Virus record (IMG/VR): IMGVR_UViG_3300045960_000114
Span: 1 to 64,000 of that record
Length of the DNA stretch: 64,000 nucleotides
Direction: 5' to 3' (one strand)
Source of the DNA: a virus
Every line of letters starts with the position of its first letter. Position 1 is the first letter of the stretch. Of this stretch, positions 10,582 to 62,139 are shown in pieces. A program made the translations under genes and the position numbers. The notes under the pieces were generated by a model. That model saw nothing but the letters and a program-made list of their open reading frames with translations. It was not told the origin of the DNA and ran no database searches.

Positions 10582-10589
10582 GGCATCTC

Positions 10590-11240: not shown

Positions 11241-11416
11241 AGCTTCCCTCCTTAGGATATCCATGTTAAAAGAGGCGTGATTCGCTGTCAATATCAGATT
11301 AGTTGATAAGCCGTAGGAAACTTTGTTCCTGTACTGTAAGTCATTGCCGCGCTAAGCCATAGTTGATTGGAGACCTTCCACCGTGTATCCTGTAAGCGGG
11401 ATCTGAGGATCGACAC

Positions 11417-13894
11417 ATGGCGGTACTTTCATTCGTTACGAACACCGGGCCGAGCCGCTTCATCTCCTATGTGCCACCTGGCGGCCTATACATGGCGACT
11501 GGTCAGACGGCTACCATTGCTGGCATCATCGACACTGAAGTTCAGATGATGGACACTTCCAAGCTGCATCTGTTCCAGGCGGATATGGCAGCTGGGCGGA
11601 TCAGTGTAACCTACCAGTTCAACGATCAGGCTTTGACCAGTGGTGGATTCATTCCGGTAAGTGGAAGCATTGGTAGTGGATTGCTGTCGGATGGCGCTGT
11701 CGTGTCTGGTTCCATCGCGTCCGGTCAGATCGGTCCGTTGCATCTCGCCAGCGGTGTCGTCGCTGCGGCCATTTCCGGTGCGATCGGATCGGGCAGGCTT
11801 GCGGCTGGCGCAGTTATCAGCGCGTCAATCGCTTCTGGCCAAGTCGGGCCGAGGCACCTGGCCAGCGGCGTCACGATTCAAACAAGCGGCGCAGTAACCA
11901 GCGGGAAGATCGGTAATGGCGCGGTCGTGTCTGGTTCTATTGCCAGCGGCCAGATCAGTCCATACCATTTTGCCAGCGGCGCGGTTCATTCCGCGATCAC
12001 ATCCGGTTCGATCCATTCAGGGGACCTGGCTAATGGGACTGTAACATCCGCTATTATCGCTAGCGGACAGGTTGGTTCGTACCATCTGGCTTCAGGCACG
12101 GTTGATTCGGCTATTACTTCGGGGTCAATTCATTCTGGTGACCTTGGTGCTGGCTCGGTTCAGAGCGTCAACATTACAAATGGTGCCGTGGTCAGTGCGG
12201 CGATTGGAAGCGGGCAGGTCGGGTTCGAGCACATCGCTTCTGGCGTCATTCCACGGGGTCTTTTGTCCGGTTCAGTTCAATCTGGTGACATTGGTAATGG
12301 CGCTGTCGTTTCCGGGTCCATTGCCAGCGGACAGATCGCACAACATCATCTGGCGTCAGGAGTTGGTGGGTCTTTGTCATCCGGCTCCGTGCGCTCCGGG
12401 TACATGGGCGTTGCCGCCGTCGTTTCCAGTTCCATTGCCAGCGGACAGATTGGTCAGCACCACCTGGCTTCTGGTGTTGGTGGTGGCGTCCTGACGTCAG
12501 GTTCCGTAGGGTCAGGTACGCTTGGTAATGGAGTTGTCCTATCAAGTTCGATTGCCAGTGGCCAGATCACGCAGGAGCACCTGTCCAGCGGCCTGCCCAT
12601 CATTTCCGGTTCCATCGTGTCAGGTGATCTCGGAAATGGCGTGGTGATGTCGTCCAGCATTGCGAGCGGACAGGTTGGTGGTAGGCATTTCTCGTCAGGT
12701 GTGGTTCATGTCATTGTTACGTCTGGTTCAATCGGTGCCTATGCGTTGGCGGATAGCTCCGTAAGTTCCGCTCACATCGGGGCTGGTGAGATTGGGTACG
12801 AACACTTTGCTTCTGGTGCGACATTACCACAGTCAGGCAGGGTTGTGTCGGGCATGCTTGGTAATGGTGTGGTGGTCTCCGGTTCCATTGCTTCCGGGCA
12901 GGTCGGGCCAATGCATATAGCTATTGGCGCCGGCTTGTTAACCTCGGGTTCCGTTGTGTCTGGGCTTATCGGGGATCAGGCTGTTGCTTCAAGCACGCTT
13001 GCATCTGGTTCGGTCGGCCCAATCCATTTGAGTAGCGGGACAGCCATCGTCTCCGGCTCGATCATGTCGGGTGATCTGGCGGATAGCTCGGTGGTGTCTG
13101 GAACCATTGCTTCGGGACAGCTTTGTGCGGCGCACTTCGCGTCAGGCGTGCTGTATGAACAGTTCATCGCTTCTGGCGCTTCGATTATTTCTGGTCAGCT
13201 TGGTAATGGCGTGGTGTTCTCTGCCAACGTAGCCAGTGGTCAACTCGGTGGAACTCACTTCGGTTCGGGTTCAATTCAATCGGCTGCGTACGCTTCCGGT
13301 TCAATCAGCACCTTTAAGATTGCCAGCGGACAAATTTTGAACACGAACATCGCCTCAGGTGCTGTTCTGAGCGCAAACATTGGTTCAGGGCAGATTGGGT
13401 TCAATCACTTGGCTTCTGGCCAGCAGTTGAACTCCGGGGTGATCATCGCTACGTACCTGGCCTCGGGGACTGTGTCTTCGGCAAATATTGCCAGCGGGCA
13501 GGTGGGTGGGACGCACTTCGGATCTGGTTCAGTGCAGTCTGCCGCTTATGCGTCTGGTTCGATCAGCACGTTCAAGATCGCCAGTGGGCAGATTCTAAAC
13601 GTGAACATTGCGTCCGGTGCTGTTCTGAGCGCAAACATTGGTTCAGGGCAGATTGGGTTCAATCACTTGGCTTCTGGCCAGCAGTTGAACTCAGGCACGG
13701 TCGTCGCGACTTACTTGGCTTCTGGGGCGGTTTCTTCTGCCAACATTGCTTCTGGGGCGATCGCCTTTGCAGTTCCGGCTTTCAGCGGCCAGCCTGGTGG
13801 TACGGCGCTTGGTCTGATCACGCTGGATTTGTACAACAACCGGATTTGGGCATGTACATCTGGCAGCAACTGGCGTTACGCTTCGCTGACGTAG
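11417..13894 (+). CDS. Ser/Gly pentapeptide-repeat protein, probable fibre (beta-solenoid)
   Basis: About 750 aa of SG-xxx pentamers with recurring SGSIASGQIGxxH[LF]ASG units; short distinct C-terminal domain. Confidence 0.75.
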   Translation: MAVLSFVTNTGPSRFISYVPPGGLYMATGQTATIAGIIDTEVQMMDTSKLHLFQADMAAGRISVTYQFNDQALTSGGFIPVSGSIGSGLLSDGAVVSGSIASGQIGPLHLASGVVAAAISGAIGSGRLAAGAVISASIASGQVGPRHLASGVTIQTSGAVTSGKIGNGAVVSGSIASGQISPYHFASGAVHSAITSGSIHSGDLANGTVTSAIIASGQVGSYHLASGTVDSAITSGSIHSGDLGAGSVQSVNITNGAVVSAAIGSGQVGFEHIASGVIPRGLLSGSVQSGDIGNGAVVSGSIASGQIAQHHLASGVGGSLSSGSVRSGYMGVAAVVSSSIASGQIGQHHLASGVGGGVLTSGSVGSGTLGNGVVLSSSIASGQITQEHLSSGLPIISGSIVSGDLGNGVVMSSSIASGQVGGRHFSSGVVHVIVTSGSIGAYALADSSVSSAHIGAGEIGYEHFASGATLPQSGRVVSGMLGNGVVVSGSIASGQVGPMHIAIGAGLLTSGSVVSGLIGDQAVASSTLASGSVGPIHLSSGTAIVSGSIMSGDLADSSVVSGTIASGQLCAAHFASGVLYEQFIASGASIISGQLGNGVVFSANVASGQLGGTHFGSGSIQSAAYASGSISTFKIASGQILNTNIASGAVLSANIGSGQIGFNHLASGQQLNSGVIIATYLASGTVSSANIASGQVGGTHFGSGSVQSAAYASGSISTFKIASGQILNVNIASGAVLSANIGSGQIGFNHLASGQQLNSGTVVATYLASGAVSSANIASGAIAFAVPAFSGQPGGTALGLITLDLYNNRIWACTSGSNWRYASLT
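13358..13692 (+). repeat. Exact 77-bp direct repeat (13358-13434 and 13616-13692) within a 258-bp internal duplication
   Basis: GGTGCTGTTCTGAGCGCAAAC...CAGCAGTTGAACTC is read identically at both positions, 86 codons apart. Confidence 0.9.
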
Positions 13895-13902
13895 AGGTTT
13901 GA

Positions 13903-15027
13903 ATGGCTAAGAAACGGGCCAGAATACACGGCGTTACACCACCTCCGCCGCCTCCGCCGCCTGGACTTTACTCCTGGGGCTCAGGTTACAACGGAGAGTT
14001 GGGCACGGGAAGCACGCTGTATCGTAGCGTGCCGGGCCAGGTAGGTTCAGCATCCGATTGGACAGTTGCAGATTCTCTTTCCGGTAATGGCTATGGGTTG
14101 CGTACGGGTAAACTGCATGCCTGGGGGCCGAATTCTTACGGTCAGATCGGAAATGGTACGCAGGACTGGTCTACTGGTTACTCCAGCCCCGTGCAGATTG
14201 GCTCTGGCAATGACTGGTCTCATGTGGCTGGGGCTGATAGCGGCTATGTTGGTGGAATACGGTCTGGCAAACTGTATATGTGGGGAGCCAACTATAATGG
14301 GGCGTTGGGGTTGGACACGAATTTTGAATACAGCAGCCCTGTTCAAGTAGGAGCGCACACAGATTGGTCTTCGGTTGCTTGTGGCGCCGATCATACGCTG
14401 GCGATCAGGTCAGGTCAGTTATGGTCAACAGGATACAACGGGAATGGTCAGTTGGCCCAAGATGGTTCCACGTACTATCTATCCAGCTTTGTGCAGGTAG
14501 GGGCCGCGTCTAATTGGGCTTTAGTACAGGCGCGTTACAACACATCAGCTGCGCTTAAAGCGGATGGTACGTTGTGGATGTGGGGTAGTGGAGGTTACGG
14601 ACAGATTGGCGACGGTACGTATGAGTCTGCTGTCAGCAGCCCGATTCAAGTTGGATCCGAGACTGATTGGACGATGGTGTCGATCAGCGCCAGCCACGTC
14701 CTTGCTATACGTGGCGGAAAACTGTTTGCGTGGGGATATGACGGATACGGACAGTTGGGGCTTGGGTTGGATACCGGTGAGTCGTTCAGTTCTCCAATCC
14801 AGGTGGGATCTGAGACTGATTGGACCCACATTTCGGCGGGAGACGGTTTTAGTTTTGGCATACGTAACAGTGGCAGGCTTTACGCCTGGGGCTTCAATGA
14901 TTCTGGTGAGCTGGGTCTGGGTGATAATGACTGGCGCAGCAGCCCTGTTCAGGTAGGTGCACTTGGCGACTGGGAAGGTTGGATCGGGATCTGTGCTGGT
15001 TACAGTTTTGCTTTTGCAACACGGTAG
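13903..15027 (+). CDS. RCC1/BLIP-II-type 7-bladed beta-propeller protein
   Basis: Seven SSP[VI]Q[VI]G..xDW repeats alternating with L[YFW]xWGxNxxGQLG. Confidence 0.88.
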   Translation: MAKKRARIHGVTPPPPPPPPGLYSWGSGYNGELGTGSTLYRSVPGQVGSASDWTVADSLSGNGYGLRTGKLHAWGPNSYGQIGNGTQDWSTGYSSPVQIGSGNDWSHVAGADSGYVGGIRSGKLYMWGANYNGALGLDTNFEYSSPVQVGAHTDWSSVACGADHTLAIRSGQLWSTGYNGNGQLAQDGSTYYLSSFVQVGAASNWALVQARYNTSAALKADGTLWMWGSGGYGQIGDGTYESAVSSPIQVGSETDWTMVSISASHVLAIRGGKLFAWGYDGYGQLGLGLDTGESFSSPIQVGSETDWTHISAGDGFSFGIRNSGRLYAWGFNDSGELGLGDNDWRSSPVQVGALGDWEGWIGICAGYSFAFATR

Positions 15028-15036
15028 GGGGCGTGG

Positions 15037-16161
15037 ATGGCTACTCCTGGCAGACTTCGTTACCGTGGGTATCAACCCGACCCATTTTTGGGTCGTATGT
15101 TTGGTTGTGGCTATGGCGGCGATGGAGAGTTTAACAACAATACTAGACTCACTGTCAGCAGTCCGATTCAGATTGGATCTGCAAACGACTGGAAAGGCGT
15201 GGTTGGTAATTCCATGACGTTGGCTATACGTTATGGGAAACTTTTTGCGATGGGAGCGCTTATACCCATACCGCCTGGGTTTGCCGTTAGAAGCAGCCCC
15301 GTACAGATTGGAAGCGAGACGGGGTGGACTGTAATTTCGGCGAGCACGGACCCATATAATCCCATGTTCGGCGGCATCAGAAACGGCAAGTTGTTCATGT
15401 GGGGGTACAATAATTACGGGCAGGTTGGGGATGGAACACGAACCATCAGATCTAGTCCGGTTCAGATCGGTTCCGATACTGATTGGACAGCGCTCTCATG
15501 CGGCAGGGAGGGTGCTTTCGGGATTCGCGGTGGGAAGATATTCGCTTGGGGCAACAACTCGTATGGTCGGTGCGGGGTATCGTCCGGATCGGTAGCTGCT
15601 TACAGCAGTCCAGTACAGATCGGCGCCAATACGGATTGGAGCCAGGTGAGTGCGTGTTACTACGGCGTTCATGCGATCCGGGCTGGCCAGCTTTATGGTT
15701 GGGGTAATAACAGTTTCGGTGAGATTGGTAACGGAACCAACGACGTACTGGATCATACTGCTCCGGTGCAGATAGGGACATTCGACGACTGGACTTTCGT
15801 GGCATCGAGTTTCATGGCCTGCTTTGGTATACGGAAACCTGGGAGGCTTTACGCCTGGGGATACAATGAGGTCACAGGTTCACTCGGGCTTGGTAATTTG
15901 ACTGGAGCTTTCAGTAGTCCGGTTCAAGTTGGATCAGGGATAGACTGGTCGTATGTCAGTACCACTGATGCTCTCAATTACACCGCCGCTATGGGCATTC
16001 GTTCGGGTAAGTTGTACAGCTGGGGACTCAACAGTTCTGGCGTACTCGGGCTTGGCGACATGAACAACCGGTCAAGTCCGGTGCAGGTTGGTTCGGAGAC
16101 TGACTGGACGAGCGCGTCCATGGGTGTTAGCCACGCGATAGCTATTCGGCGACCTGGCTGA
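15037..16161 (+). CDS. RCC1/BLIP-II-type 7-bladed beta-propeller protein (paralog)
   Basis: Seven of the same repeats; same 374-aa length as the upstream gene. Confidence 0.88.
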   Translation: MATPGRLRYRGYQPDPFLGRMFGCGYGGDGEFNNNTRLTVSSPIQIGSANDWKGVVGNSMTLAIRYGKLFAMGALIPIPPGFAVRSSPVQIGSETGWTVISASTDPYNPMFGGIRNGKLFMWGYNNYGQVGDGTRTIRSSPVQIGSDTDWTALSCGREGAFGIRGGKIFAWGNNSYGRCGVSSGSVAAYSSPVQIGANTDWSQVSACYYGVHAIRAGQLYGWGNNSFGEIGNGTNDVLDHTAPVQIGTFDDWTFVASSFMACFGIRKPGRLYAWGYNEVTGSLGLGNLTGAFSSPVQVGSGIDWSYVSTTDALNYTAAMGIRSGKLYSWGLNSSGVLGLGDMNNRSSPVQVGSETDWTSASMGVSHAIAIRRPG

Positions 16162-21107: not shown

Positions 21108-24100
21108 ATGATGGGCGTGCCCGACAAGCCTGGGCTTAACCCGGCCACGAGCACCAAGCCGCTGGACTACACGCTTGGTTCCACACCGCCACCGCCTCAG
21201 GTGACGCATCGGTCGTTCACGGATTACCCTAAGATCCGACAGAACGTCTTCGACAACGCGCTCAAGGCGATGTCCGAGAAGTACCCGATTGAAAATCAAC
21301 GGCATCGATTGGAGCTGCGGGAGGCGAAGTACGAGGATCTGAACCCGTTCACCCTGAAGGACCAGAAGAAGGCCATCATGGAGGGCGGTACCCTCCAGAA
21401 GAAGATCCTGGGCACGTGGGCGCTCGTGGACAAGGCGACCGGCAAGGTAATGGACCAGAAGGCCACCACCGTCGCGCACGTGCCGTGGATGACCCAACGT
21501 GGTACGTTCATCTTTAATGGCAACGAGTACACGGTTGCCAACCAGATGCGACTGAAGCCCGGTATCTTCACCCGCGTGCGCGAGAACGGCGTTCTGGAAG
21601 CACACGTCAACGTCAAGCCTGGCACCGGCCCGTCCTTCCGCATCTACATGGAGCCGGATACCGGCGTCTTCAGGCTTGGCGTGGGGCAGTCCAACCTGAA
21701 GCTCTACCCCATCCTGCGTTCGATGGGCGTGTCCGATCACGATATCACGAAGCATTGGGGTCCGGAAATCCTTCAGAAGAATATCGAGGCCGAGGATCCG
21801 CGCGCGGTAGCCCGCGCATACATGCGACTGGTCAACGTCCGGTCTGAGGAGAGTGCCAAGGCTGAAGGCGCGGCGATGGATAAGGAAGCCTCCCTGTTTG
21901 GCGTGGACCCTGATTTTGACAAGGCGTACAGGGAAGGTTCGGAACTCACCAGCGACCTGTTCGACCCGCCGGCTGAAATATGGTCGCGGGTGTGCATCAA
22001 GAAGTCGCCCGTAGAGGGGAAGGGTCTGTTCGCCAGCCTCAACTTCGATGCCGGCGAGACCATCTTCCCTGCCTTCGTGTTCACCGGGATCGACAAGCAC
22101 AACGACAGCATCAAGCGGTCGGTTCCGGCACGCTGGCTGAACCATAGCGACACGCCGAATATCGAGTTGTACGAGGACGGAGACATCGTCTGGGCGCGTG
22201 CGCTGAAGCCCATTCAGGCTGGCGAGGAGCTGCTGCCGGATTACGTGCAGTCGCATGAAGCGGTCAATTCCTGGGTGAGCCGGCTGCTGCCGCTCCTCGA
22301 GAAGTCGGCCAAGATCGGCGCCCGGGAGAGTGATCGGCGCTGGACGAAGTTGTGGTACACGGGCCGGCTGATCCACTCCAGGCACAACCAGAAGGACTGG
22401 GTGCTGCTCAAGGTCCACAAAGGGCTGTGCGAGGCCACGTATGACTCGCTGAAGGCCGAGGGGATCGACTGCGAGCCCAAGTTCGACCAGCCGCACATCA
22501 GCATTATGCGCCCGGAGGAAGTCGAGCAGCTCAAGAAGAAGTTCGGCAATTCCTGGCAGGGTGCGGCCAAGATCGGCCATCCGATGCGTTTCAGCGTCAC
22601 CCGCATCGTGAATCTGGTGCCGGCGGGCTGGGACAAGTACGACCGCGTCTGGTTTCTTGAGTGCTCCTCGCCCGACCTGGAGAAGTACCGCGAGGACTTG
22701 GGGCTGCCCTGCCTCCCGCAGAACAACGAGAGCGGGCACGACATGCGCTTCCACATCACTGTGGCGGTGCATCCAAATACCGTGTCGAAGGCTGCGGAGC
22801 TGCTGTGCGAGAAGAGGGCTGCCGCGTTCGATGACGTTGGCTCCGGTACGAATGCTGTATCACCCAGGCCGGACAACCAGGGCAAGGCGCTGCTCGAGCA
22901 TTTCCAGAAGATGGAAGTCGACCCGGAGGTCACATCGGCCACGCTGGGTCAGGCGCACACCAACATTGGCATCCCTACGCTGATGCGTACCACGCAGAAG
23001 CTGATTAACGTCTCCCGCGAAACGGAAGACACGGATGACCGCGATTCGCTGTCTTTCCAGACGCTGCATGGTCCGGAGGACTTCTTTGCCGAACGTGTGA
23101 AGCGTGACGCGGGGATGATTGGTCGAAAGATGCTGTGGCGCGCGTCTGCTCGTGGGAACCTGAAGCATGTTCCCGCCGGTGTTCTGACCCCGCAGCTTCA
23201 TAGTGTGTTGCTCAACTCCGGCATGGGTATGCCGCTGGAAGAGACCAACCCGCTGGACATCTTTGACCAGAATCAACGTATTCTGCGGCTTGGCGAAGGC
23301 GCCATTCCATCCATCGAAGCAGTCCCTGATGAAGCACGCTCGGTTCAGCCGTCACACTTCGGGTTTATTGACCCGGTCAAGGCGCCTGAGTGCTATGACG
23401 AGGCGACTGAGGTCATGGTTGAGACTGGGTGGAAACCGTGGCCGAAGGTGACCGAATCTGACAGATTTGCTTGTCTCATTAATGGCAGGCTTGAGTATCA
23501 CCACGCTGACCGGTTGATCGCGGAGACCTACAAAGGACAGATGTATGGTGCGGATACTCAGACATTGAGTTATCTGGTAACGCCAAACCACCGCATGTGG
23601 GTGCGTCCTCAGGGGTCCACGAAGAAAGATTACAACCCGACTTACCGATTTGAGTTACCTGATGAGATTGTAGGCACAAACCGCCTATTCCGCTGCGGTG
23701 GGCATGCTCCAGTCGGCGGAACGCGAACTGGATTTACCCTTCCAGTAATTGAGGCGGATGGTAAGGAAAACCAGATTCACGGTAATCCACCTATTGGCTC
23801 CTCACTGAAGGTGTTCAAGGAAGTTGACATAAACGATTGGGCTGAGTTCATGGGGTGGTATCTCAGTGAGGGTAGTCTCAATGGGCAGTATGTAACTCGG
23901 ATTACCCAGTCGAACGTGGCGAACCCCGAGAACTGCTTGGCGATCAGTAGGCTTCTCAATCGATTACCTTTCACGTGGTGTTTCGTTGAAGGCGACACGT
24001 TCACCATCTCATCGAAACAACTGAATAGCTACCTCACACAGTTTGGGTTCTGTAACGATAAGTTTATCCCGAGTGAGATCTGGGAAGCCCCTGTTCTGGC

Positions 24101-27100
24101 GCGTGAGTTATTCTTGAGAGCGTTACTGGCTGGTGATGGGCGGACTAACAGGTACGGACGCAAGAGTCAGCTTTGCACTACCAGTCGGCGACTGGCTGAT
24201 GATGTGCAGCTTCTGGCATTTCAGTTGGGTCACTCTACTAGAATCTCGTTCGAGAAGGATGAGCGAAAAGATACGTACCTTGGATGTTATATCGTCAATA
24301 TCCACGCCAAGAATGAGCGTCTCGTTGTTGGTCGAAGCGCGTATCATCCCGACGGTCAATACCGTTCGGTAAACTATGACGGAAAGGTTTACTGCGCTAC
24401 CGTCCCTGGTGGTTTGTTGTACGTCAGGCGCGGTAACTCAGCTGGATTCTGGTGTGGTAACAGTGAGAAGATCGGCGTGGATCTGCGTGTCGCTCATGGC
24501 GCTGTCAAGGGATCTGACGGTCAGTTCTACACCACCGTGAAGAACGTCCAGAGCGGCGAGCGCGAACTGGTGTCGGCATCCAGCATGTCCAAGTCGGTCG
24601 TGGCATTCCCCGGCGAGATGAACCGAGACACGCCGAAGGTGCGGGCCATGGTCAACTCCAGGCGCGTGGAATACGTGCCTCGGGACGACGTGCAGTACGA
24701 GCTTCCTCATGGCTCAAACATGTTCGCCGCTGGCTCGAACATGGTGCCCATGATCGGCGGGATCAAGGGTGGCCGTCTGTTGATGGGTTCCAGAATGGTG
24801 ATTCAGGCGCTGCCGCTCAAAGGTGCGGAAGCACCGCTTGTCCGCAGCGCCGGCGAGGACGGGAACAGCTTCGAGAACCTCTACAGCGAGTACGTGGGGG
24901 CCGTTCGCGCCAAGGGGCACGGCGTCATCGAGCATGTGGATCCGGATAAGATGGTTGTCCGGTACAAGAACGGTGAGCGCGAGACACACGAGCTCTACAA
25001 CAACATGCCGTTCAACCGCAAGACACTGATCCACAGCACGCCACTCGTCAAGATCGGCGATACCGTGCGGCCCAACCAGCTCATGGTACACAGCAACTAC
25101 ACGGACAGGGAAGGCAACATCGCGCTGGGGCGCAACCTGCGCGTGGCCTACATGCCCTACCACGGCTCGAATTTCGAGGACGCCACTGTCATCAGCGAGT
25201 CGGCGGCCAAGAAGCTGTCCAGCGAGCACATGTACCAGGTCTCGCACGAAGTGGACAAGGACACGACGGTCGGGCGCAAGGAGTTCGTTTCCATCTTCCC
25301 GGCCAAATACCCGAAGGACGGGTTGAAGCATATCGACACCAATGGCGTTGTGAAGCCCGGTTCGATCGTCAAGCACGGCGACCCGCTGGTCCTGTCCATG
25401 CAGAAGGGCAAGATCGACGCACTGCATCGCGGGCACAGCCCGATGTGGTCCGACAAGACAACGGAATGGCATCACACGTCCGATGGGTTGGTCACCGACG
25501 TGGCGCCGACAAAGGATGGCGGCTGGAACATCATCGTCAAGTCGTACGCCCCCATGCAGGAAGGCGACAAGATGAGTGGCCGGTACGGGGACAAAGGTAT
25601 CGTCTCCAAGATCCTGCCCGACCATCAGATGGTGCATGACAAGGACGGCAGACCGTTTGACGTGATCCTGAACCCATTGGGAATTGTCTCTCGCATCAAT
25701 CCCAGTCAGGTTGTCGAAGCGGCGTTGGGCAAAGTGTCTGAACACACCGGCAAGCCGTACTCAATGCCTGCCTTCATGGAAGACGACTTGATCGGGCACG
25801 CGCAGAAGGAGCTGGCCAAACACGGGCTATCCGACACGGAAGACGTGTTTGACCCTACTACCGGGCGCAAGATCCCCAAGGTGTTCACGGGCAACCGCTT
25901 CATCATGAAGCTGCATCACACGGCTGAGTCCAAGGGCCGTGGGCGCGACATAGGTGGTTACACGGCTGAAGGGCTGCCCGCGCGCGGCGGCGAGGGTGGC
26001 AGTAAGCGAATTGGCCAGATGGAGCAGGCGGCGCTGCTGTCGCACGGCGCTACGGAAGTGCTGAAGGACGCGCAGATCGTACGCGGCCAGCGTAACGATG
26101 ATTGGTGGAGTTCGTTCAGGCGTGGGTTGCCGCCACCTTCCCCCAAGGTTCCCTTTGTCTACGACAAGTTCCTGAACTACATGAAGGGCGCCGGCATCAA
26201 CACCGACAAGCGCGGTGACCGGATTCACCTGATGGCGCTGACGGACAAGGACGTTGAGAAGATGTCGTCCGGGGCGATCACCAGCCGCGATACGGTGCGC
26301 GGTGATACGATGGAAGAGATCCCTGGTGGCTTGTTCGACCGACACATCACCGGGGGACATAATGGTGATCGGTGGGGTCACATCGCACTGGCAGAACCCC
26401 TGCCGAACCCCGTGTTCGAGGAGCCCATCAGGACTCTGTTAGGTCTAACAGCATCCAAGTTCTCTGATGTGCTGGCGGGCAAGGAGAAGCTGGGCGGCAA
26501 CACCGGTTCGAAGGCGATCTACACGGCGCTAAACAACATCAAGACCGGCGACGCGATCAAATATTACGAAGGCGTGATCAAGGACGGGCGCAAGTCGGCG
26601 CGCGATAAGGCCATTAAGGCGCTAGGCTACCTGCGCGGGCTGGAGAAGGGCAAGCTCAACCCGGTCGACCTGATGATGAGTAAGGTGCCGGTCGTGCCGC
26701 CCAACATGCGCCCCATCACGGTCTTCCGCAAGATGACCATGGTTGCGGACCCGAACTACCTGTACCGCGACCTGATGTTCTCCAATGATGCTTTCAAGGC
26801 GGTCAGGGATGAACTGGGCGAGGAGCACTCCGGCGATGAGCGACTCAACCTCTACAACTCCTTCAAGGCAACCACTGGACTTGGTGACCCAGTTCAAGCG
26901 AAAACCAAAGACAAAGGAGTGCGAGGGCTGCTTGCACACGTGTTCGGGTCGGGAAGTCCCAAGTTCGGCATGTTCCAGCGGCGCGTGCTGTCGTCATCGG
27001 TCGACGAAGTCGGGCGGGCCACAATCACCGTCAACCCCGAACTCAACATGGACGAAGTGGGATTGCCCGAACCAAAGGCATGGGTGATCTACCGTCCGTT

Positions 27101-27608
27101 CATCACCAGGCGTCTCGTGCGGCGCGGTATGCCAATGTTGCAGGCGGCCAAGGAAGTAGCCAACCAGTCGAGGGTGGCGCGTGACGCGATGATGGAAGAG
27201 ATCACGCAGCGCCCGGTCATCATCAACCGTGCGCCGGTGTTGCACCGGTACGGGTTCATGGCAGCGTGGCCCAAGCTGGTCAAGGGCGAGACGCTACATG
27301 TACCACCGGTGGTTTGCAGCGGCTTTAACGCGGATTTTGATGGCGACAACATGAACTACCACGTTCCCGCTACGGACGGAGCCGTCAAGGACGCTGTTGA
27401 AAAGATGATGCCGTCGCGTAATCTTAGGTCTGTCAGGAACTTCGGTGTGCAGTACACCCCGAAGAACGAGTTCCTACTGGGACTCTACCTGGCCTCGAAG
27501 GCCGACAACAAGAACGAGCCTAAGGTCTTCGCCAACAAGAAGGCCGTGATGGATGCCTGGAAGCGCGGCGAGATTGACGTAGGTGACCGCATCGTAACGA
27601 GGGATTGA
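21108..27608 (+). CDS. rpoBC: DNA-directed RNA polymerase beta fused to beta-prime N-half, with embedded SET domain, 2H phosphoesterase and intein
   Basis: beta: GTFIFNGNEY..NQMRLKPG, GDKMSGRYGDKGIVS, GGSKRIGQME. beta-prime: GGLFD..RWGHI, VPVVPPNMRP, NRAPVLHR, FNADFDGDNM catalytic motif. Confidence 0.95.
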   Translation: MMGVPDKPGLNPATSTKPLDYTLGSTPPPPQVTHRSFTDYPKIRQNVFDNALKAMSEKYPIENQRHRLELREAKYEDLNPFTLKDQKKAIMEGGTLQKKILGTWALVDKATGKVMDQKATTVAHVPWMTQRGTFIFNGNEYTVANQMRLKPGIFTRVRENGVLEAHVNVKPGTGPSFRIYMEPDTGVFRLGVGQSNLKLYPILRSMGVSDHDITKHWGPEILQKNIEAEDPRAVARAYMRLVNVRSEESAKAEGAAMDKEASLFGVDPDFDKAYREGSELTSDLFDPPAEIWSRVCIKKSPVEGKGLFASLNFDAGETIFPAFVFTGIDKHNDSIKRSVPARWLNHSDTPNIELYEDGDIVWARALKPIQAGEELLPDYVQSHEAVNSWVSRLLPLLEKSAKIGARESDRRWTKLWYTGRLIHSRHNQKDWVLLKVHKGLCEATYDSLKAEGIDCEPKFDQPHISIMRPEEVEQLKKKFGNSWQGAAKIGHPMRFSVTRIVNLVPAGWDKYDRVWFLECSSPDLEKYREDLGLPCLPQNNESGHDMRFHITVAVHPNTVSKAAELLCEKRAAAFDDVGSGTNAVSPRPDNQGKALLEHFQKMEVDPEVTSATLGQAHTNIGIPTLMRTTQKLINVSRETEDTDDRDSLSFQTLHGPEDFFAERVKRDAGMIGRKMLWRASARGNLKHVPAGVLTPQLHSVLLNSGMGMPLEETNPLDIFDQNQRILRLGEGAIPSIEAVPDEARSVQPSHFGFIDPVKAPECYDEATEVMVETGWKPWPKVTESDRFACLINGRLEYHHADRLIAETYKGQMYGADTQTLSYLVTPNHRMWVRPQGSTKKDYNPTYRFELPDEIVGTNRLFRCGGHAPVGGTRTGFTLPVIEADGKENQIHGNPPIGSSLKVFKEVDINDWAEFMGWYLSEGSLNGQYVTRITQSNVANPENCLAISRLLNRLPFTWCFVEGDTFTISSKQLNSYLTQFGFCNDKFIPSEIWEAPVLARELFLRALLAGDGRTNRYGRKSQLCTTSRRLADDVQLLAFQLGHSTRISFEKDERKDTYLGCYIVNIHAKNERLVVGRSAYHPDGQYRSVNYDGKVYCATVPGGLLYVRRGNSAGFWCGNSEKIGVDLRVAHGAVKGSDGQFYTTVKNVQSGERELVSASSMSKSVVAFPGEMNRDTPKVRAMVNSRRVEYVPRDDVQYELPHGSNMFAAGSNMVPMIGGIKGGRLLMGSRMVIQALPLKGAEAPLVRSAGEDGNSFENLYSEYVGAVRAKGHGVIEHVDPDKMVVRYKNGERETHELYNNMPFNRKTLIHSTPLVKIGDTVRPNQLMVHSNYTDREGNIALGRNLRVAYMPYHGSNFEDATVISESAAKKLSSEHMYQVSHEVDKDTTVGRKEFVSIFPAKYPKDGLKHIDTNGVVKPGSIVKHGDPLVLSMQKGKIDALHRGHSPMWSDKTTEWHHTSDGLVTDVAPTKDGGWNIIVKSYAPMQEGDKMSGRYGDKGIVSKILPDHQMVHDKDGRPFDVILNPLGIVSRINPSQVVEAALGKVSEHTGKPYSMPAFMEDDLIGHAQKELAKHGLSDTEDVFDPTTGRKIPKVFTGNRFIMKLHHTAESKGRGRDIGGYTAEGLPARGGEGGSKRIGQMEQAALLSHGATEVLKDAQIVRGQRNDDWWSSFRRGLPPPSPKVPFVYDKFLNYMKGAGINTDKRGDRIHLMALTDKDVEKMSSGAITSRDTVRGDTMEEIPGGLFDRHITGGHNGDRWGHIALAEPLPNPVFEEPIRTLLGLTASKFSDVLAGKEKLGGNTGSKAIYTALNNIKTGDAIKYYEGVIKDGRKSARDKAIKALGYLRGLEKGKLNPVDLMMSKVPVVPPNMRPITVFRKMTMVADPNYLYRDLMFSNDAFKAVRDELGEEHSGDERLNLYNSFKATTGLGDPVQAKTKDKGVRGLLAHVFGSGSPKFGMFQRRVLSSSVDEVGRATITVNPELNMDEVGLPEPKAWVIYRPFITRRLVRRGMPMLQAAKEVANQSRVARDAMMEEITQRPVIINRAPVLHRYGFMAAWPKLVKGETLHVPPVVCSGFNADFDGDNMNYHVPATDGAVKDAVEKMMPSRNLRSVRNFGVQYTPKNEFLLGLYLASKADNKNEPKVFANKKAVMDAWKRGEIDVGDRIVTRD
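21993..22247 (+). other. SET domain embedded in RNAP beta
   Basis: All three canonical SET motifs: KSPVEGKGLFA, RWLNHSDTPN, GEELLPDY. Confidence 0.88.
22311..22790 (+). other. 2H phosphoesterase domain embedded in RNAP beta
   Basis: Two H-x-[ST] motifs, PHISI (His codon at 22494) and FHITV (His codon at 22752), about 86 aa apart. Confidence 0.75.
23391..24461 (+). mobile_element. Intein (357 aa) with LAGLIDADG homing endonuclease
   Basis: Starts CYDEATEV; block B VTPNH; endonuclease blocks FMGWYLSEGS and FLRALLAGDG; ends GFWCGN followed by Ser. Visibly lower GC than the flanks. Confidence 0.93.
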
Positions 27609-27632
27609 CGGCCTGACTTACTGGAGACACCC

Positions 27633-27920
27633 ATGGCGAAACAAGATCTTCTTCAGATTCTGAAATCAGCGTGTGCGACGAACTGCTCGCCGATGCCTAA
27701 GAAGAAAAAGGCAACGATGGAGAAGAAAGCGCCGCCCGCCCCAGTAAAGACTGCGCAGCTGACAAAGGAGGAGGCGCTTGCGAAAGCGGCTTCCCTGGCG
27801 GTCATGTTGAAGGCCGGAGTGAAGGACGGTACTGAGAAGCGTGCAGCACTGAACAAGATCATTGCGGCTGAAGGCGTTGATGCATCACTCAATGCCGTTT
27901 TGAAATACCTCGAGGGATGA
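27633..27920 (+). CDS. Small basic KxA-rich protein
   Basis: ILKSA, VKTA, LAKAA and EKRAA in 95 aa; SD GGAG. Confidence 0.65.
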   Translation: MAKQDLLQILKSACATNCSPMPKKKKATMEKKAPPAPVKTAQLTKEEALAKAASLAVMLKAGVKDGTEKRAALNKIIAAEGVDASLNAVLKYLEG

Positions 27921-28120
27921 ACGCGCGCGCGTACTTAGTCAAACGGGCGCTGCCTGATCCGTTGGGGTTTCAGATGCGGCGACCGTTTCACGACCCGCGA
28001 CCGAATGAGTTCACGCGGGACGACCAGAGGTTTTTGCAGCAGCTTCTCGCGAAGCTGCCACCGATCAACCGGCGACCGGTGAAGGCCAGGATACACGGAA
28101 GAAGCGAGGTGGACGGATGA
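27917..28120 (+). CDS. Small protein with MNARAYLVKRA leader
   Basis: ATGA overlaps on both sides; leader shared with other ORFs. Confidence 0.65.
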   Translation: MNARAYLVKRALPDPLGFQMRRPFHDPRPNEFTRDDQRFLQQLLAKLPPINRRPVKARIHGRSEVDG

Positions 28121-28899
28121 ACAAGATCAACGCGGAGCTACTGCAGCGCATTCGTGCTGGGTTGACGAAACAGGCATTCGTCCCGATGGGGCCGAATGGT
28201 GCGCAGACGCCGCCCCCGCAGGATCCGAGCATGCAGGGGCCGCCTATGATGCCGCCTGGCGGTGCACCCGGGATGGATCCGTCTATGGGTGGTATGCCTC
28301 CCGGCGGTGCGCCAGGTGGTGCCCCGCCTGGTGCTGATCCTTCCGCTGCTGGTATTTCGGGTTCGGGTCAGCCGGTCATGCTGCAGATGCAGGATCTCAT
28401 GCAGCTTGTCCAGATGATGGGCAGCGGCGGTGGTGGCGGTGGCGCTGGCGGCGCCGGCGGCGGGGGTGCTGGCGGTGGCGGCGGAAAAGGCGGCGGAGCA
28501 AAGGAGTTGGCTGGAAAAGTTGATGCGATTGCCAACGACATCGCGCAGCTCAAGGCGTTCATCATGGGCACGCAGGCCAATGGCGGTGGGATGCCACCCG
28601 GCGGCGCGCCGCCTCCAATGGGTTCGCCGGTCAGTCCCGAGGCTGGCCCGCAGACGCCGATGATCCCCGGCCAGCCGCCTGGAATGCCGCCTGGCATGGA
28701 TCCGTCCATGATGGGCATGGATCCGTCCATGATGCAGGGTGGAATGCCCCCTGGCGGAATGCCGCCTGCCGGTCCTGCAGGCGGGATGCCACCTGGCGGG
28801 ATGCCGGTGCAGGCCAGTTTCGGCAAGCAAGCTGAGAAGGCGCCTCCGATGCCGAAGGCGCAGGTTCTTTCCGGGATCATCTCGAGGCTTCGAAGATGA
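28117..28899 (+). CDS. Pro/Gly/Met-rich low-complexity protein
   Basis: GGMPPGG and MDPSM repeats bounded by LTKQA and GKQA. Confidence 0.7.
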   Translation: MNKINAELLQRIRAGLTKQAFVPMGPNGAQTPPPQDPSMQGPPMMPPGGAPGMDPSMGGMPPGGAPGGAPPGADPSAAGISGSGQPVMLQMQDLMQLVQMMGSGGGGGGAGGAGGGGAGGGGGKGGGAKELAGKVDAIANDIAQLKAFIMGTQANGGGMPPGGAPPPMGSPVSPEAGPQTPMIPGQPPGMPPGMDPSMMGMDPSMMQGGMPPGGMPPAGPAGGMPPGGMPVQASFGKQAEKAPPMPKAQVLSGIISRLRR

Positions 28900-29117
28900 A
28901 AGTACGAATCGACAAGAACGGCTTCGAGTCCGAGATGTTAACGGACGCCAAAGCCATTGTCGTATTCGATGACTTCGACAACCCGATGTACGCTGCGAAG
29001 CAGATCAACGAGCACAACAGCGTACACGAGAAGGCAGGCGAACCCGGGTTCGAACAGATGCTGAAGACGTTTGGCTTGCGCCTGAAGGTTCCTTACAAAA
29101 CGGTGAAGATGACATGA
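28896..29117 (+). CDS. Hypothetical protein (73 aa)
   Basis: ATGA overlap with the upstream gene; typical codon usage. Confidence 0.6.
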   Translation: MKVRIDKNGFESEMLTDAKAIVVFDDFDNPMYAAKQINEHNSVHEKAGEPGFEQMLKTFGLRLKVPYKTVKMT

Positions 29118-30172
29118 GCGCTTACGAACTGCTTAAACGGGCCGATGAGGTTTACGCCATGCGGAAGCTGGCGTTCCTTGCCGGCGTTGAGGCTTTCTGT
29201 TTGCAGGCTGGCATGTCCCGTTCCGCGCTGGTACCGATCGTGAAGGTGGCCGAGGAGTTGGTCGAGGGAAGTGGCGATCTGCACGAGGCCATGCATAAAT
29301 GTGGGGCTGGTCCGGAGGATTATGCCAGATCGTTTGCCACGCCCACAAATGTCGCATACGGAAGTTCCGGAGGAAGGATAAAGGGGAACCGACCTTACAT
29401 ACCGCCGACGCCTACTTGGGACAACGCGACGAAGCAGACCATGACGCCTACCGTTGGTTCTTCTGCCCAAACAGCGGCGCCTACGGCACCTACGGAAGGA
29501 AGTGCTTCCTCCACTCCTGCACAAGCGCCGCGCAGATCAGAGGGTGCGGCGAAGACATTCGGAACTGCCGAGCAACTGGCTAAGAGTAATCCTCAGTCAG
29601 GTATGAGTAATTGGTGGTGGGCTGGTGGGATTCCGGGTGCTGTAGCGGGTTGGGCGTACAACAATCTCGGTGATCAGACGAACAAGGATTTGCAGGAAAA
29701 GACGCGATACGAAGTTAACCGCGAGGGCGGTAAAGTCACTGAAGCGAAAAATCCGACAACTGACGTAGAGTGGAAGCAGATGCAGCATCGAAATGCTGGG
29801 TTGGCTAGAGAAACTCTAAATACTGCGTATCAGCAGTACCTCACGAATGCATCTTCGATGGGTCCAGCGCAAGCCGCTGTGTTTTCTCAGACCGAGCATC
29901 CAGGTGCCTTTGAACACATTGAAAAGACTTTCAAAGATCCAAAGACCGGGAAGTGGACTTATCCGACAGCTGATATGGGTTGGGCGCCCGGTAAACCGTA
30001 CGATCCAGCAGGGCCAGGAGTTGCCACCATGGCTGCGGGTGGTTACAACACTTCAACACCTACTTCAGCTGCAGCTCCAACGACGACACCAGCGCCGGCG
30101 CCTACAACATCAAGTGCACCGCCGGATGCCGGGCCGCAGCCGTCTACCATGGCAAATCCGTCACCACCGTAA
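29114..30172 (+). CDS. Putative virion protein (KxA leader, Pro/Thr-rich, lower-GC body)
   Basis: MSAYELLKRA and RKLA motifs; WWWAGGIPGAVAGW hydrophobic stretch. Confidence 0.6.
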   Translation: MSAYELLKRADEVYAMRKLAFLAGVEAFCLQAGMSRSALVPIVKVAEELVEGSGDLHEAMHKCGAGPEDYARSFATPTNVAYGSSGGRIKGNRPYIPPTPTWDNATKQTMTPTVGSSAQTAAPTAPTEGSASSTPAQAPRRSEGAAKTFGTAEQLAKSNPQSGMSNWWWAGGIPGAVAGWAYNNLGDQTNKDLQEKTRYEVNREGGKVTEAKNPTTDVEWKQMQHRNAGLARETLNTAYQQYLTNASSMGPAQAAVFSQTEHPGAFEHIEKTFKDPKTGKWTYPTADMGWAPGKPYDPAGPGVATMAAGGYNTSTPTSAAAPTTTPAPAPTTSSAPPDAGPQPSTMANPSPP

Positions 30173-30181
30173 GGGATAGGT

Positions 30182-32026
30182 ATGAACACGACCGTCGGTC
30201 AACTGCTGCTTAACGATGCTCTGCCAGAGCAGCTGAGAGACTATGGCCGTGTGATGGACAAGAAGACGATTGCAGCCCTGTTCTCTAAGGTAGCTGAAGA
30301 GCATCCCAACAAGTTCAAAGACCTAAACTTCGAATTGCATAATCTGGGTTCGCATGTGTCAACCGTTCACGGTCGGAACGCCAGTTTCTCGCTCAACGAC
30401 CTGAAGATGCCAGACGCTGTGCGCGCCATGCGTGACGAGCTGAGCAAGAAGATCGACGCGATCAACACCAGTCCCGGGAAGGCTAGTCAGAAAAATGACA
30501 AGATCGTGGAGACTATTTCCGGCTACCTGGAGCGAGCCAACGAGTTGAACTACTCGGAGGGCGTGAAGGAGAACAATCCGTTTGCACTGCAGGTGCTCTC
30601 TGGTGCGCGTGGCAACGCCAGCCAGTTCCGTTCTATGCGGGTAGGGGACATGCTGCTGGTCGACCACAAGGACCGGCCCATCCCGATTCCCGTCATGCGC
30701 TCCTATGCCGAGGGTGTCGACCCGGCCCAGTATTGGGCATCCGCTTATGGCGCGCGCAAGGGAGCCATCTCCGTCAAGTTTGCGACGCCGAAGTCAGGCT
30801 ACCTTGGCAAGCAGCTCATTTACGCGGCGCACCGCATGGTGGTGTCCGAGAAGGACTGCGAAACGACCAACGGGATTACGGTGGCTGCCAATGACGCCGA
30901 CAATGAGGGCGCTGTGCTGGCGAGGGATGTCGGAGATCACTCAGCGGGAACGGTTCTAGGTCCGCGATCGGTCAAGGCGTTAGGCGACCAGAAGGTGGTT
31001 GTTCGTTCCCCCATCACCTGCCAGGCCAGGAACGGCGTCTGCCAGAAGTGTGCCGGTATCCGCGAGCGTGGTGGTTTCCCGCCGATTGGTGACAACATTG
31101 GCATCGCAGCGGCGCAGGCTGTGTCTGAACCGATCGGACAGGGCCAGCTCTCAGAAAAGCACACAGGCGGCATGGCCGGTGGTAAGTCGAATAAGAGCGG
31201 CCTGGACCTGGTGAACCAGCTCGTACAGGTGCCCACTATGTTCCAGGGCGGTGCGGCGGTTGCATCCAACGACGGCAGGGTGACAGAGATCAAGCCGGCG
31301 CCACAAGGTGGTAAGTACATTCGCGTCGGTGCGACTGAGCACTGGGTGCCCGCACATCTCGAGCCCAAGGTGAAGGTTGGTGATGAGATCGAAGCCGGTG
31401 ACATTATCTCCGAAGGCATTCCAAATCCGGCGCTGATCGCGCAGCACAAAGGCATTGGCGAGGGCCGCAACCAGTTCGTTAATGTCATGCGCTCAACATT
31501 GAAGGAAGGTGGCTTCCCTGCACACCGCAGAAATCTGGAAGTCCTGGCGCGCGGGCTCGTCAACCACGTGCGTGTCACCGATCTCGATGGGCCGGCTGAT
31601 ACGGTGCCTGACGATGTCATGGAATACGATTCCCTTTCGCGCGGATACCAGCCGCGTTACGGGTTCCAAGTGCGTCCTCCTAAAGAGTCTACGGGTCTTT
31701 ACTTGGAGGAGCCGGTATTGCATTACTCCATAGGAACCCGTATAACACCAAGGGTGTCAAAAGCGATGGAGGACAACAAGGTAGGCTCGGTCAAGGTGCA
31801 CGCTGATCCGCCTTCCTTTGTCCCTGAGATGAGCCGGGCAATGGAAACGCTAGCGCACTCAGACGATTGGATGGTTAGAATGGGTGGGTTGTATGGCGTT
31901 AAACGCAGCGTGATTCAGTCCGCTCATCGCGGCGGAGCTTCCGACGTGCATGGGACATCGTTCATCCCTTCGCTTGCGCAAGGGACAGAGTTCGGGAAAG
32001 AGATCGGAACCAAGGGTACCTACTAA
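30182..32026 (+). CDS. rpoC: RNA polymerase beta-prime C-terminal half
   Basis: TTVGQLL, SGARG, bridge helix YGARKG..ATPKSGYL, Zn site DC..C-x6-C-x2-C, trigger loop GQLSEKHTGG. Confidence 0.93.
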   Translation: MNTTVGQLLLNDALPEQLRDYGRVMDKKTIAALFSKVAEEHPNKFKDLNFELHNLGSHVSTVHGRNASFSLNDLKMPDAVRAMRDELSKKIDAINTSPGKASQKNDKIVETISGYLERANELNYSEGVKENNPFALQVLSGARGNASQFRSMRVGDMLLVDHKDRPIPIPVMRSYAEGVDPAQYWASAYGARKGAISVKFATPKSGYLGKQLIYAAHRMVVSEKDCETTNGITVAANDADNEGAVLARDVGDHSAGTVLGPRSVKALGDQKVVVRSPITCQARNGVCQKCAGIRERGGFPPIGDNIGIAAAQAVSEPIGQGQLSEKHTGGMAGGKSNKSGLDLVNQLVQVPTMFQGGAAVASNDGRVTEIKPAPQGGKYIRVGATEHWVPAHLEPKVKVGDEIEAGDIISEGIPNPALIAQHKGIGEGRNQFVNVMRSTLKEGGFPAHRRNLEVLARGLVNHVRVTDLDGPADTVPDDVMEYDSLSRGYQPRYGFQVRPPKESTGLYLEEPVLHYSIGTRITPRVSKAMEDNKVGSVKVHADPPSFVPEMSRAMETLAHSDDWMVRMGGLYGVKRSVIQSAHRGGASDVHGTSFIPSLAQGTEFGKEIGTKGTY

Positions 32027-61347: not shown

Positions 61348-62139
61348 GTGATAAGCGATACTCCTGAGCACAAAGAGAACAACTTCCCCGTGTGGAAGCC
61401 GGAACCACCCAAGCGAAAGCCTTCCTTGGACGAGGTTTACAGCAAGTGGAAGATGGCACCCACGCCCGGCAACTTCTCGGAGCTGCTTGACTCGGCCAGG
61501 CCGGTGATGAACTCAGCGCTCACCACCTACGCAGGCGGCAACAAGTCGTACCTGGGCCACGCCAAGCTGCTGGCAGCCAAAGCTTTCAGGACATACGACC
61601 CGACCCGGGGAGTTAAGCTGCATACTCACCTGATCACGCAGATGCAGCCGCTCATGCGCACAGCGCGCGAGCACAACATGCCAGTTTACGTGCCGGAGCG
61701 TGTGAGCATCGAGGGTGCCCACCTCAGGCGGGCTGAGCGTGAGCTGAATGAAAAACTGGGTCGGGAACCAGCTGACACTGAGTTGGCGGATCACACCGGC
61801 CTATCCTTGAAACGAATCCTCCACATCCGGAAATTCAACCGAGGTGATGTACCTGAGTCTGGGTTGACCATGCGGGCAGAAGACGGTGAGGAGGAAGTTT
61901 TTCACCCGGCCATGGAGACGAAGGACCACAACAAGGTCTTCCTGGAGTACGTTCACCACGACCTGGACCCCATCAACCAGAAGATACTGGAGTGGAAGAC
62001 AGGGCTCAATGGAGTCAGGGTGTTGTCAAACAACGAGATCGCAAGGCGGCTGAAACTGTCACCCGCAGCCATTTCGCAGCGGTCGGCGAAGATCGCGCAG
62101 ATGGTGGCTGAAGCACAATCTACGGAGGGTTTGAAATGA
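61348..62139 (+). CDS. Sigma-70 family factor
   Basis: Region 2 (KAFRTYDPTRGVKLHTH), region 3 (LGREPADTELADHTG) and region 4 HTH (SNNEIARRLKLSPAAISQ). Confidence 0.85.
   Translation: MISDTPEHKENNFPVWKPEPPKRKPSLDEVYSKWKMAPTPGNFSELLDSARPVMNSALTTYAGGNKSYLGHAKLLAAKAFRTYDPTRGVKLHTHLITQMQPLMRTAREHNMPVYVPERVSIEGAHLRRAERELNEKLGREPADTELADHTGLSLKRILHIRKFNRGDVPESGLTMRAEDGEEEVFHPAMETKDHNKVFLEYVHHDLDPINQKILEWKTGLNGVRVLSNNEIARRLKLSPAAISQRSAKIAQMVAEAQSTEGLK

Follow-up and report, generated by a model that had tools for sequence, protein, structure and literature searches.

What kind of RNA polymerase (RNAP) does a phage make if its β subunit runs in frame into the first half of β′ and the second half of β′ is the product of a separate gene? 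The question is raised by two open reading frames (ORFs) at positions 21,108 to 32,026 of a 64,000-nucleotide stretch (the window), the first 64 kb of the 185,265-bp IMG/VR viral record IMGVR_UViG_3300045960_000114 (CheckV completeness estimate 88%). A first-pass annotation, made from the letters without database searches, had drawn attention to this division of the enzyme and had read it as an unusual, independently evolved phage architecture. The division is real, and it is no one-off: because the same RNAP, for the most part in the same layout, is found in the cultured Salmonella phage Arash, in Vibrio phages D69, D148 and D181, and in at least 72 IMG/VR contigs, it cannot be peculiar to one phage, and the RNAP of the window takes its place in a large, uncharacterised clade that has a cultured representative. 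What such an enzyme is for calls for more conditional statement: probably, in our judgement, it is a two-chain RNAP that would be delivered by the virion, would depend on σ and dispense with α, and would also carry accessory enzymes into the cell.

Architecture of the fused chain

ORF1 (21108..27608; on the plus strand, as are its parts, ORF2, the genes between the two ORFs and the σ gene discussed below) is a single stop-free frame of 2166 amino acids (aa), just as the first-pass annotation had read it: β plus the N-terminal half of β′, with two insertions. It opens with N-terminal block 1 of β (aa 1-253, 21108..21866), part of the β1-β2 (protrusion/lobe) module as recognized by AlphaFold2 (AF2) modeling and VIA-align. 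An in-frame insertion with SET and 2H domains follows (aa 254-587, 21867..22868; Pfam SET and 2H-SAK), and β resumes as block 2 (aa 588-761, 22869..23390), which extends through the fork region to ..KAPE and is defined by alignment with the Arash protein gp206, by AF2 and by Pfam Rpb2_3. Next come an intein of 357 aa (aa 762-1118, 23391..24461; Arash alignment, splicing motifs, LAGLIDADG_3), the C-terminal two-thirds of β (aa 1119-1690, 24462..26177; Pfam and PDB matches), including the β double-psi β-barrel (DPBB)/Rpb2_6 domain, and the N-terminal half of β′ (aa 1691-2166, 26178..27605; Rpb1_1, Rpb1_2 and the catalytic motif NADFDGD). The two insertions account for about 30% of ORF1. The β/β′ junction lies after ..GAGINTDK, and the linker is a matter of a few residues only.

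Pfam places Rpb2_6 (β) at aa 1268-1619 (E 2.8e-56; 191.7 bits against a cut-off of 23.4) and Rpb1_1 and Rpb1_2 (β′) at aa 1843-2099 (Rpb1_2: 84.6 bits against 25.3); SET, 2H-SAK and LAGLIDADG_3 are further Pfam domains of the same protein. The best PDB matches are to bacterial β (E 1e-65) and to bacterial β′ (E 1e-45 for its N-terminal half, 1e-40 for its C-terminal half). The order of the Pfam domains and these bacterial matches together establish that the β/β′ fusion and the separate C-terminal half of β′ are both real. With bacterial β and β′ as its closest solved relatives, the enzyme is also, as had been supposed, bacterial-like, and the organisms named in the tblastn tallies include no Pseudomonas (phiKZ-type) record. 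Contigs that probably derive from the source sample span 21108-30200 without a difference; they re-cover the junction and are not independent evidence for it.

Chain 1 is 33% identical with Arash gp206 over 1104 aa. Block 2 aligns with residues 233-418 of gp206, and its Rpb2_3 match is weak. In AF2 models the predicted local distance difference test (pLDDT) score exceeds 90 at aa 35-245 of block 1 and at aa 590-730 of block 2, and the β1-β2 core fold matches the B1-B2 domains of M. tuberculosis β (4kbj_A) with a VIA-align Z of 19.4 (root-mean-square deviation 4.5, 320 aligned residues) and full-length bacterial β chains with a Z of about 15. The catalytic motif, at aa 2074 (27327-27347), is the canonical NADFDGD, and no clade sequence that reaches this position lacks its D-x-D-G-D core.

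The break in β′ and the zinc sites

ORF2 (30182..32026) encodes a 614-aa protein beginning MNTTVGQ, the C-terminal half of β′, with Rpb1_4 and Rpb1_5 domains (Rpb1_5: 77.5 bits); by homology it should hold the bridge helix and the trigger loop. The first-pass annotation had placed its start at 30182, five small genes after ORF1. Position and number stand, and the size does not: two of the five genes encode 260 and 352 aa.

Where in β′ does the break fall? Chain 1 ends opposite bacterial β′ residue ~548, about 85 aa past NADFDGD, and chain 2 starts opposite residue ~568. Residues 23-336 of chain 2 align with residues 13-352 of cyanobacterial RpoC2 (8syi_Z), which puts the phage break in the same linker as the cyanobacterial rpoC1/rpoC2 break and about 10 residues upstream of it; the first-pass annotation had likewise placed the cyanobacterial break slightly downstream. 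Chain 2 likewise starts ~10 residues before the RpoC2 start when 8gzg_Z is considered, and about 5 residues from the start of plastid β″. Nor is the site new: it matches the cyanobacterial and plastid site, and the RNAPs of phiKZ and AR9, whose β′ is split right after the DPBB domain, are reported to use it as well (PMC7598289). The gene arrangement is what differs from cyanobacteria: the phage halves are kept 1-6 kb apart by unrelated, variable genes, and β is continuous with the N-terminal half. Since bacterial rooting of the tree described below makes the split a derived feature inside the phage clade, the coincidence of site is convergent and not inherited. More distant phage β′ homologues suggest that β′ has been broken at this place in other phage lineages too: in Ralstonia phage RP13 (L079) five small genes separate β′-N from β′-C, and Rhizobium phage RHph_TM40 (L078, Kleczkowskaviridae) has a single unsplit β′ of 1127 aa.

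Are the two halves perhaps rejoined? Two devices were considered and rejected. Trans-splicing by a split intein fails on the chain ends, which have no extra residues in comparison with full-fusion relatives; and a large intron between the RNAP genes fails because the intervening genes differ in number and content among relatives, the gap of Arash even containing genes on the opposite strand and, among these, the gene of a virion structural protein.

The absence of the N-terminal zinc-binding domain of β′ also proves to be as described at the outset: at 26325-26390 nothing but the four residues HNGD, and no Cys, stands between GGLFDRHITGG and RWGHI. (This would be the position of the bacterial Zn ribbon, about 30 residues in E. 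coli.) The loss is general, the aligned stretch of 30-36 residues being free of Cys in all 71 clade sequences that cover it. The second Zn site, which had been said to be kept, is indeed found in chain 2 (Cys226, 280, 287 and 290 of the 614-aa protein), and CCCC is retained in most clade members with β′-C.

A clade of phage RNAPs

In Arash, gp206 (1525 aa) corresponds to β plus β′-N and gp216 (606 aa) to β′-C, and nine genes lie between them; the paper on the phage annotates the two proteins simply as β and β′ (PMC10585845). Identity between the RNAPs of Arash and the window is 28-33%. Arash and the Vibrio phages, whose RNAP is of the same type, share with the window the order of parts (β plus β′-N, other genes, then β′-C), the breakpoint, the missing Zn ribbon, a homologous σ and the position of the RNAP genes inside a structural module. 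Arash differs in having neither SET/2H insert nor intein (1525 aa against 2166 aa) and in reading AADYDGD where the window has NADFDGD. In D181 (L003, 5845-11413), and also in D148, β is divided between two ORFs; the cut corresponds to window aa ~1216-1222, and a free-standing homing-endonuclease gene lies between the two parts. The match of D69 is shorter, 4.4 kb as compared with 5.4 kb, and apparently uninterrupted.

A pattern scan of IMG/VR yielded at least 72 loci, onto whose stop-to-stop ORFs the segments of the window were mapped. The two-gene layout of the window recurs at 38 of these, with an identical breakpoint in all; at 10 loci β and β′ form one continuous ORF of about 2070 aa; and at 20 β′ is broken once more, some 100-130 aa from its start, which makes three genes where the contig holds β′-C. 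For a tree built from the C-terminal region of β and the β′-N region, three bacterial sequences (one Bacteroidales, two Gracilibacteria), a thin outgroup, served as the root, only 3 of 15 selected loci having passed the coverage filter. In it the phage sequences are monophyletic, on a stem of 1.13 substitutions per site from the bacterial sequences used; the full-fusion forms (e.g., L014, L017, L019 and L028) make up a basal grade, and all split forms fall into one clade (support 1.0; 0.97 at the next node down). Midpoint rooting also gives a single transition between fusion and split. The most economical reading is that complete fusion came first, followed by one split at the cyanobacterial-type linker and then by further splits, with the direction of change held provisional because the outgroup is thin. 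Independence from the rpoB-rpoC fusions of Helicobacter and Wolbachia is plausible.

Could the locus instead be a recent capture of host rpoBC, or its fused frame an artefact of assembly or frameshifting, or a decaying pseudogene? The amino-acid similarity to bacterial β and β′ might be pleaded in favor of such an origin, and yet the idea is effectively refuted by the monophyly and long stem of the clade, by a fused frame that recurs across dozens of independent contigs and is covered 100% by peptides in a cultured phage, by its presence in close relatives from a second study, and by the intactness of the catalytic motifs. On the nucleotide level, megablast of the locus found nothing in the phage collection.

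Three further observations concern the clade at large. First, many members have another residue in place of the Asn of NADFDGD, a position not known to vary in cellular RNAPs: the Arash group reads AADYDGD and the three-gene group AGDFDGD, and GADFDGD, NLDYDGD and TMDFDGD are other variants, the three Asp being always kept. Second, in a 192-kb member (L075, IMGVR_UViG_3300045988_176357) the RNAP-homologous frames at about 10001-14341 contain 29 in-frame TAG and no TAA or TGA, and tblastn scores go up if TAG is translated as an amino acid, for which reasons this phage probably recodes TAG. Third, contigs with clade-type RNAP (L083, L084; NCBI TFH50559.1) occur in metagenome-assembled genomes labeled Thermoanaerobaculaceae, uncultured proteobacterium and Lysobacterales, which is either mis-binning or a hint of the host.

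An intein in the β subunit

The second insertion of ORF1 lies in KAPE|SEKIG, the counterpart of the ETPEG loop of bacteria, where it separates E from S, and has the marks of an intein: Cys1 (C762), block B TPNH, a C-terminal ..WCGN ending at N1118, a +1 Ser (S1119), two LAGLIDADG-type motifs, and matches to intein-containing helicase/GyrA models. Forms without it occur, among them a precise empty allele in other metagenomes. Arash gp206 is continuous across the site; a wastewater contig represents an intein-free allele, joining 23383 to 24468 through 13 nucleotides that code for ..PESE..; and protein cluster P0008, with seven members from ENA, JGI, Logan and NCBI, has a length of 1809 aa, that is, 2166 minus 357. 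As the splicing motifs are intact and an intein-free allele exists, it is to be expected that the intein must splice out of this conserved loop before the enzyme works.

The RNAP genes of the clade are, more generally, hot spots of inteins: at least nine sites are occupied, one of them directly after the catalytic DFDGD, and a single locus may carry up to four. Inteins are found in L034, L057, L055/L065, L063, L071 and others, and many belong to one family, starting CY(D/S/T)E.TE and ending W(S/C)GN.

SET and 2H domains inside β

What are two enzyme domains doing within the β1-β2 module? The SET domain occupies about aa 292-380 (21981-22247; 30.6 bits against a Pfam cut-off of 22.4), with the motifs NHS (NHSDTPN, aa 345) and ELLPDY (ELxxDY, aa 374). 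The 2H domain follows at about aa 400-565 (22305-22802; 2H-SAK, 35.1 bits against 27), and its HxT/S motifs, HISI (aa 463) and HITV (aa 549), are both invariant in 30 of 30 copies examined. The insert interrupts the module, and the β parts on either side are modeled at pLDDT above 90. Wastewater contigs from the second study bridge both of its borders. It has no match in PADLOC or NCBIfam, and it is absent from Arash and from all 72 of the IMG/VR loci. A search of longer proteins found at least 22 other clusters in which RNAP β-β′-N is combined with 2H, and in a few of these with SET too.

With Acb1, the poxvirus cyclic GMP-AMP (cGAMP) phosphodiesterase and the 2H-SAK family the 2H domain shares its two HxT/S motifs, the Pfam 2H-SAK match and a weak resemblance of fold; with chlorovirus vSET the SET domain shares the Pfam match, the NHS and ELxxDY motifs and, again, a weak resemblance of fold. 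The domains of the window differ from these viral proteins in being internal insertions in RNAP β. Acb1, a phage nuclease directed against CBASS (anti-phage signaling that is based on cyclic oligonucleotides), has the 2H phosphoesterase fold (PMC9117128), and AR9-type virion RNAPs offer a precedent for such an insert in their HD phosphohydrolase fused to a β fragment (PMC7598289). The 2H and SET pair also appears to travel together outside RNAP genes, as in a free-standing protein of 277 aa (P0004; 8001-8834 of L080, a phage-like 30.7-kb contig), in which the order is reversed, 2H then SET.

An entirely different function for the fusion can be imagined: ORF1 might be a polyprotein, cut by a phage (prohead) protease at K-x-A-type motifs on the domain borders, so that the SET and 2H enzymes are set free, β is left in two pieces and β′-N is perhaps separated as well; the fusion would then be a device for packaging or expression and not the working form. 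A relative with 57-64% identity, L082, lends this some substance. There β block 1 is a separate gene, the next RNAP gene starts with the 2H domain, and two other genes lie between them; since block 1 is separately encoded, β must be able to work when broken at the insert site. (A 403-aa gene just upstream of the RNAP gene of L082 was tried as the β N-terminus and rejected, the real N-terminus lying two genes further up.) Six related RNAP proteins, moreover, begin at ..KEAKIGA.., the motif that precedes the 2H domain in the window, and a conserved ..SKAAELL.. stands after that domain. The force of these motifs is diminished by the low information content of K-x-A, of which we estimate that roughly a dozen copies would occur by chance in 2166 aa, and by the fact that ..SKAA.. 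also ends or follows the free-standing 2H proteins P0005-P0007 and may simply belong to the domain. The split relatives, furthermore, keep 2H fused to the next part of β, which speaks against an obligatory release at the C-terminal border of 2H. Proteolytic maturation of this kind we hold to be unlikely. The reading preferred here takes 2H and SET to be, most likely, passenger enzymes delivered when infection starts: the former may hydrolyze cyclic-nucleotide or 2′,3′-cyclic-phosphate substrates, in counter-defense or in RNA repair, and the latter may methylate a protein of the host or the phage.

α, σ and copy number

The first-pass annotation had noted that no α subunit is encoded in the window. 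The observation can be extended to the whole record: the α models PF01000 and PF01193 have no match at E ≤ 1 in its 185,265 bp, and each of 14 control genomes searched in the same terms (14/14) has one. There is one RNAP set in the record, with single matches to PF00562 and PF00623.

There is, on the other hand, a σ. The gene at 61348..62139 encodes a σ70-family factor of 263 aa (Sigma70_r3, 39.2 bits in Pfam; phrog_351) with a C-terminal helix-turn-helix; NCBIfam matches to RpoD_Cterm/SigBFG cover aa 78-260, and model positions 40-231 in the case of RpoD_Cterm. It is a homologue of the virion-associated Arash σ, gp10, and its family takes in 306 representative clusters at E ≤ 1e-30. On these resemblances it is likely to be the specificity subunit of the phage RNAP. 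In a k-mer enrichment scan that took in 81 intergenic regions, delimited in the 185-kb record by crude gene calling, no motif proved over-represented.

Proposed delivery and mode of action

How might these parts work together? The catalytic core would consist of two chains, the first comprising β and β′ to just past the active-site DPBB, the second the rest of β′, which would assemble non-covalently at a permissive linker, the one that is also split in cyanobacteria, in plastids and in the phiKZ and AR9 RNAPs. The covalent link between β and β′ probably stands in for the assembly role of the missing α dimer. RNAP and the σ70-type factor would be packaged together in the virion, on the analogy of Arash, and would enter the cell with the DNA, with the consequence that early genes could be transcribed without host RNAP.

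The analogy rests on the proteins of the Arash virion preparation, in which gp206 has the top spectral count of all, above that of the major capsid protein, and in which gp216 and the σ factor gp10 were likewise detected (PMC10585845). In the window phage, as in Arash, the RNAP genes also lie within the structural module: their block includes a tail fibre, a tail sheath and homologues of the Arash structural proteins gp218 and gp222. Another possibility is that the RNAP is not virion-borne at all, that host RNAP, perhaps redirected by the phage σ, takes care of the early genes, and that the phage enzyme comes into play for middle or late transcription only. The single RNAP set, unlike the virion and non-virion pair of phiKZ, would suit such a division of labor, as would the σ70-type factors of many large phages, which are thought to act with host RNAP (PMC13282480); and the Arash authors themselves note that proteins abundant during infection, such enzymes among them, might co-purify with and contaminate particles (PMC10585845). 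A spectral count exceeding that of the major capsid protein, the company of σ and gp216, and the structural setting of the genes nevertheless make this a rather improbable account.

Virion delivery of an α-independent, σ-dependent enzyme thus remains the interpretation that we prefer, and several points, beyond the warning about co-purification, weigh against it or against one of its parts. The relative from which packaging is extrapolated, Arash, has about 30% identity. Because the record is estimated to be 88% complete, a gene may be missing from it. Host α or ω may be put to use. Pfam region 2 of σ (Sigma70_r2) has no match anywhere in the record, which leaves binding of the σ factor to the phage core putative. 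In the intein Gly, and not the usual His, precedes the terminal Asn, although sister inteins of the clade share the W[SC]GN ending. The AF2 model of the SET/2H insert, finally, is weak (pLDDT 57, from a six-sequence alignment) and has no Foldseek match in the PDB at E ≤ 0.001; its fold matches are marginal (vSET, 3kma, E 0.018; penguinpox cGAMP phosphodiesterase, 9ciw, E 0.055), and in a 761-residue AF2 model the insert is of low confidence as well.

Genes between and around the RNAP genes

The gap between ORF1 and ORF2 (27633..30172) is filled by five co-oriented, overlapping ORFan genes: 27633-27920 (95 aa), 27917-28120 (67 aa), 28117-28899 (260 aa), 28896-29117 (73 aa) and 29114-30172 (352 aa). 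Neither these nor the flanking ORFs have a family in Pfam or PHROG. Homologues in related loci exist only for the third and fourth, and they are sparse; this poor conservation between relatives marks the gap as a variable accessory region. The third gene encodes a low-complexity protein rich in Gly, Pro and Met, with GGMPPGGAP-like repeats and a poly-Gly tract. Over 28404-28707 the summed depth in metagenome contigs is about 4-fold higher and there are many loose ends, from which it follows that this segment is repetitive or shared with other sequences. Further upstream, two adjacent 374-aa paralogues (13903-15027 and 15037-16161) match PHROG families named 'regulator of chromosome condensation' (RCC1-like repeats); as they lie directly downstream of a tail-fibre-like protein of 825 aa, they are probably virion- or fibre-associated β-propellers.

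Comparison with other RNAPs and implications

Cellular precedent exists for joining the two large subunits. In Helicobacter and Wolbachia the C-terminus of β is joined in frame to the N-terminus of β′ through a short linker, and these bacteria keep α, ω and the Zn ribbon. The fusion in the window differs in stopping half-way through β′; in the basal members of its clade the fusion is complete.

The phiKZ/AR9 enzymes are likewise phage-encoded two-DPBB RNAPs without α or ω, one set of which is packaged in the virion (PMC7598289); for the window phage the search covered α only. They are very divergent from cellular RNAPs, come in two paralogous sets, have a split β and lack a σ70 homologue; the window phage, in contrast, has one set, bacterial-like, with β fused to β′, and a σ70-family gene in its genome. 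Reviews describe the multisubunit RNAPs of phages as highly divergent and without homologues of bacterial α, σ and ω, and they treat phage σ70 homologues as helpers of host RNAP; the RNAP type of this clade is not mentioned in them (PMC13282480, PMC7824862). The clade does not respect that division: it combines a bacterial-like core with a σ70-type factor of its own, and both are found in virion preparations of a cultured member. The first-pass annotation had conceded that its claim of novelty would fall if the layout were already standard in a described phage family. In spirit it is, with the reservation that the group bears no family name and that the literature search found no paper describing the fused/split RNAP layout, the loss of the Zn ribbon, the SET/2H insert or the intein; a paper on the 'moraphage' lineage (PMC12619734) deals with phages without RNAP genes.

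It is conceivable, although we would not go so far as to call it probable, that the Arash-like phages (about 150-210 kb) possess a multisubunit RNAP of a class not yet described, the third among phages: bacterial in type, dependent on a σ70 factor, independent of α by virtue of its fusion, devoid of the Zn ribbon and delivered by the virion. The genes of this class would be open to remodeling (one- to four-gene forms, inteins at no fewer than nine sites), and in one sublineage the enzyme would have the second task of carrying into the cell a 2H phosphodiesterase and, with it, a SET methyltransferase, whose targets, as infection begins, would be host defense signaling or host proteins.

One can think of the clade as a set of natural experiments. 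Can a β-β′ fusion replace assembly mediated by α? What is the role of the β′ Zn ribbon, if an entire clade has lost it, and how freely can an RNAP be cut and decorated? Because Arash and the Vibrio phages are in culture, most of these questions are directly testable. The embedded 2H and SET domains are, for their part, candidates for enzymes of counter-defense or host takeover that would be at work from time zero of the infection.

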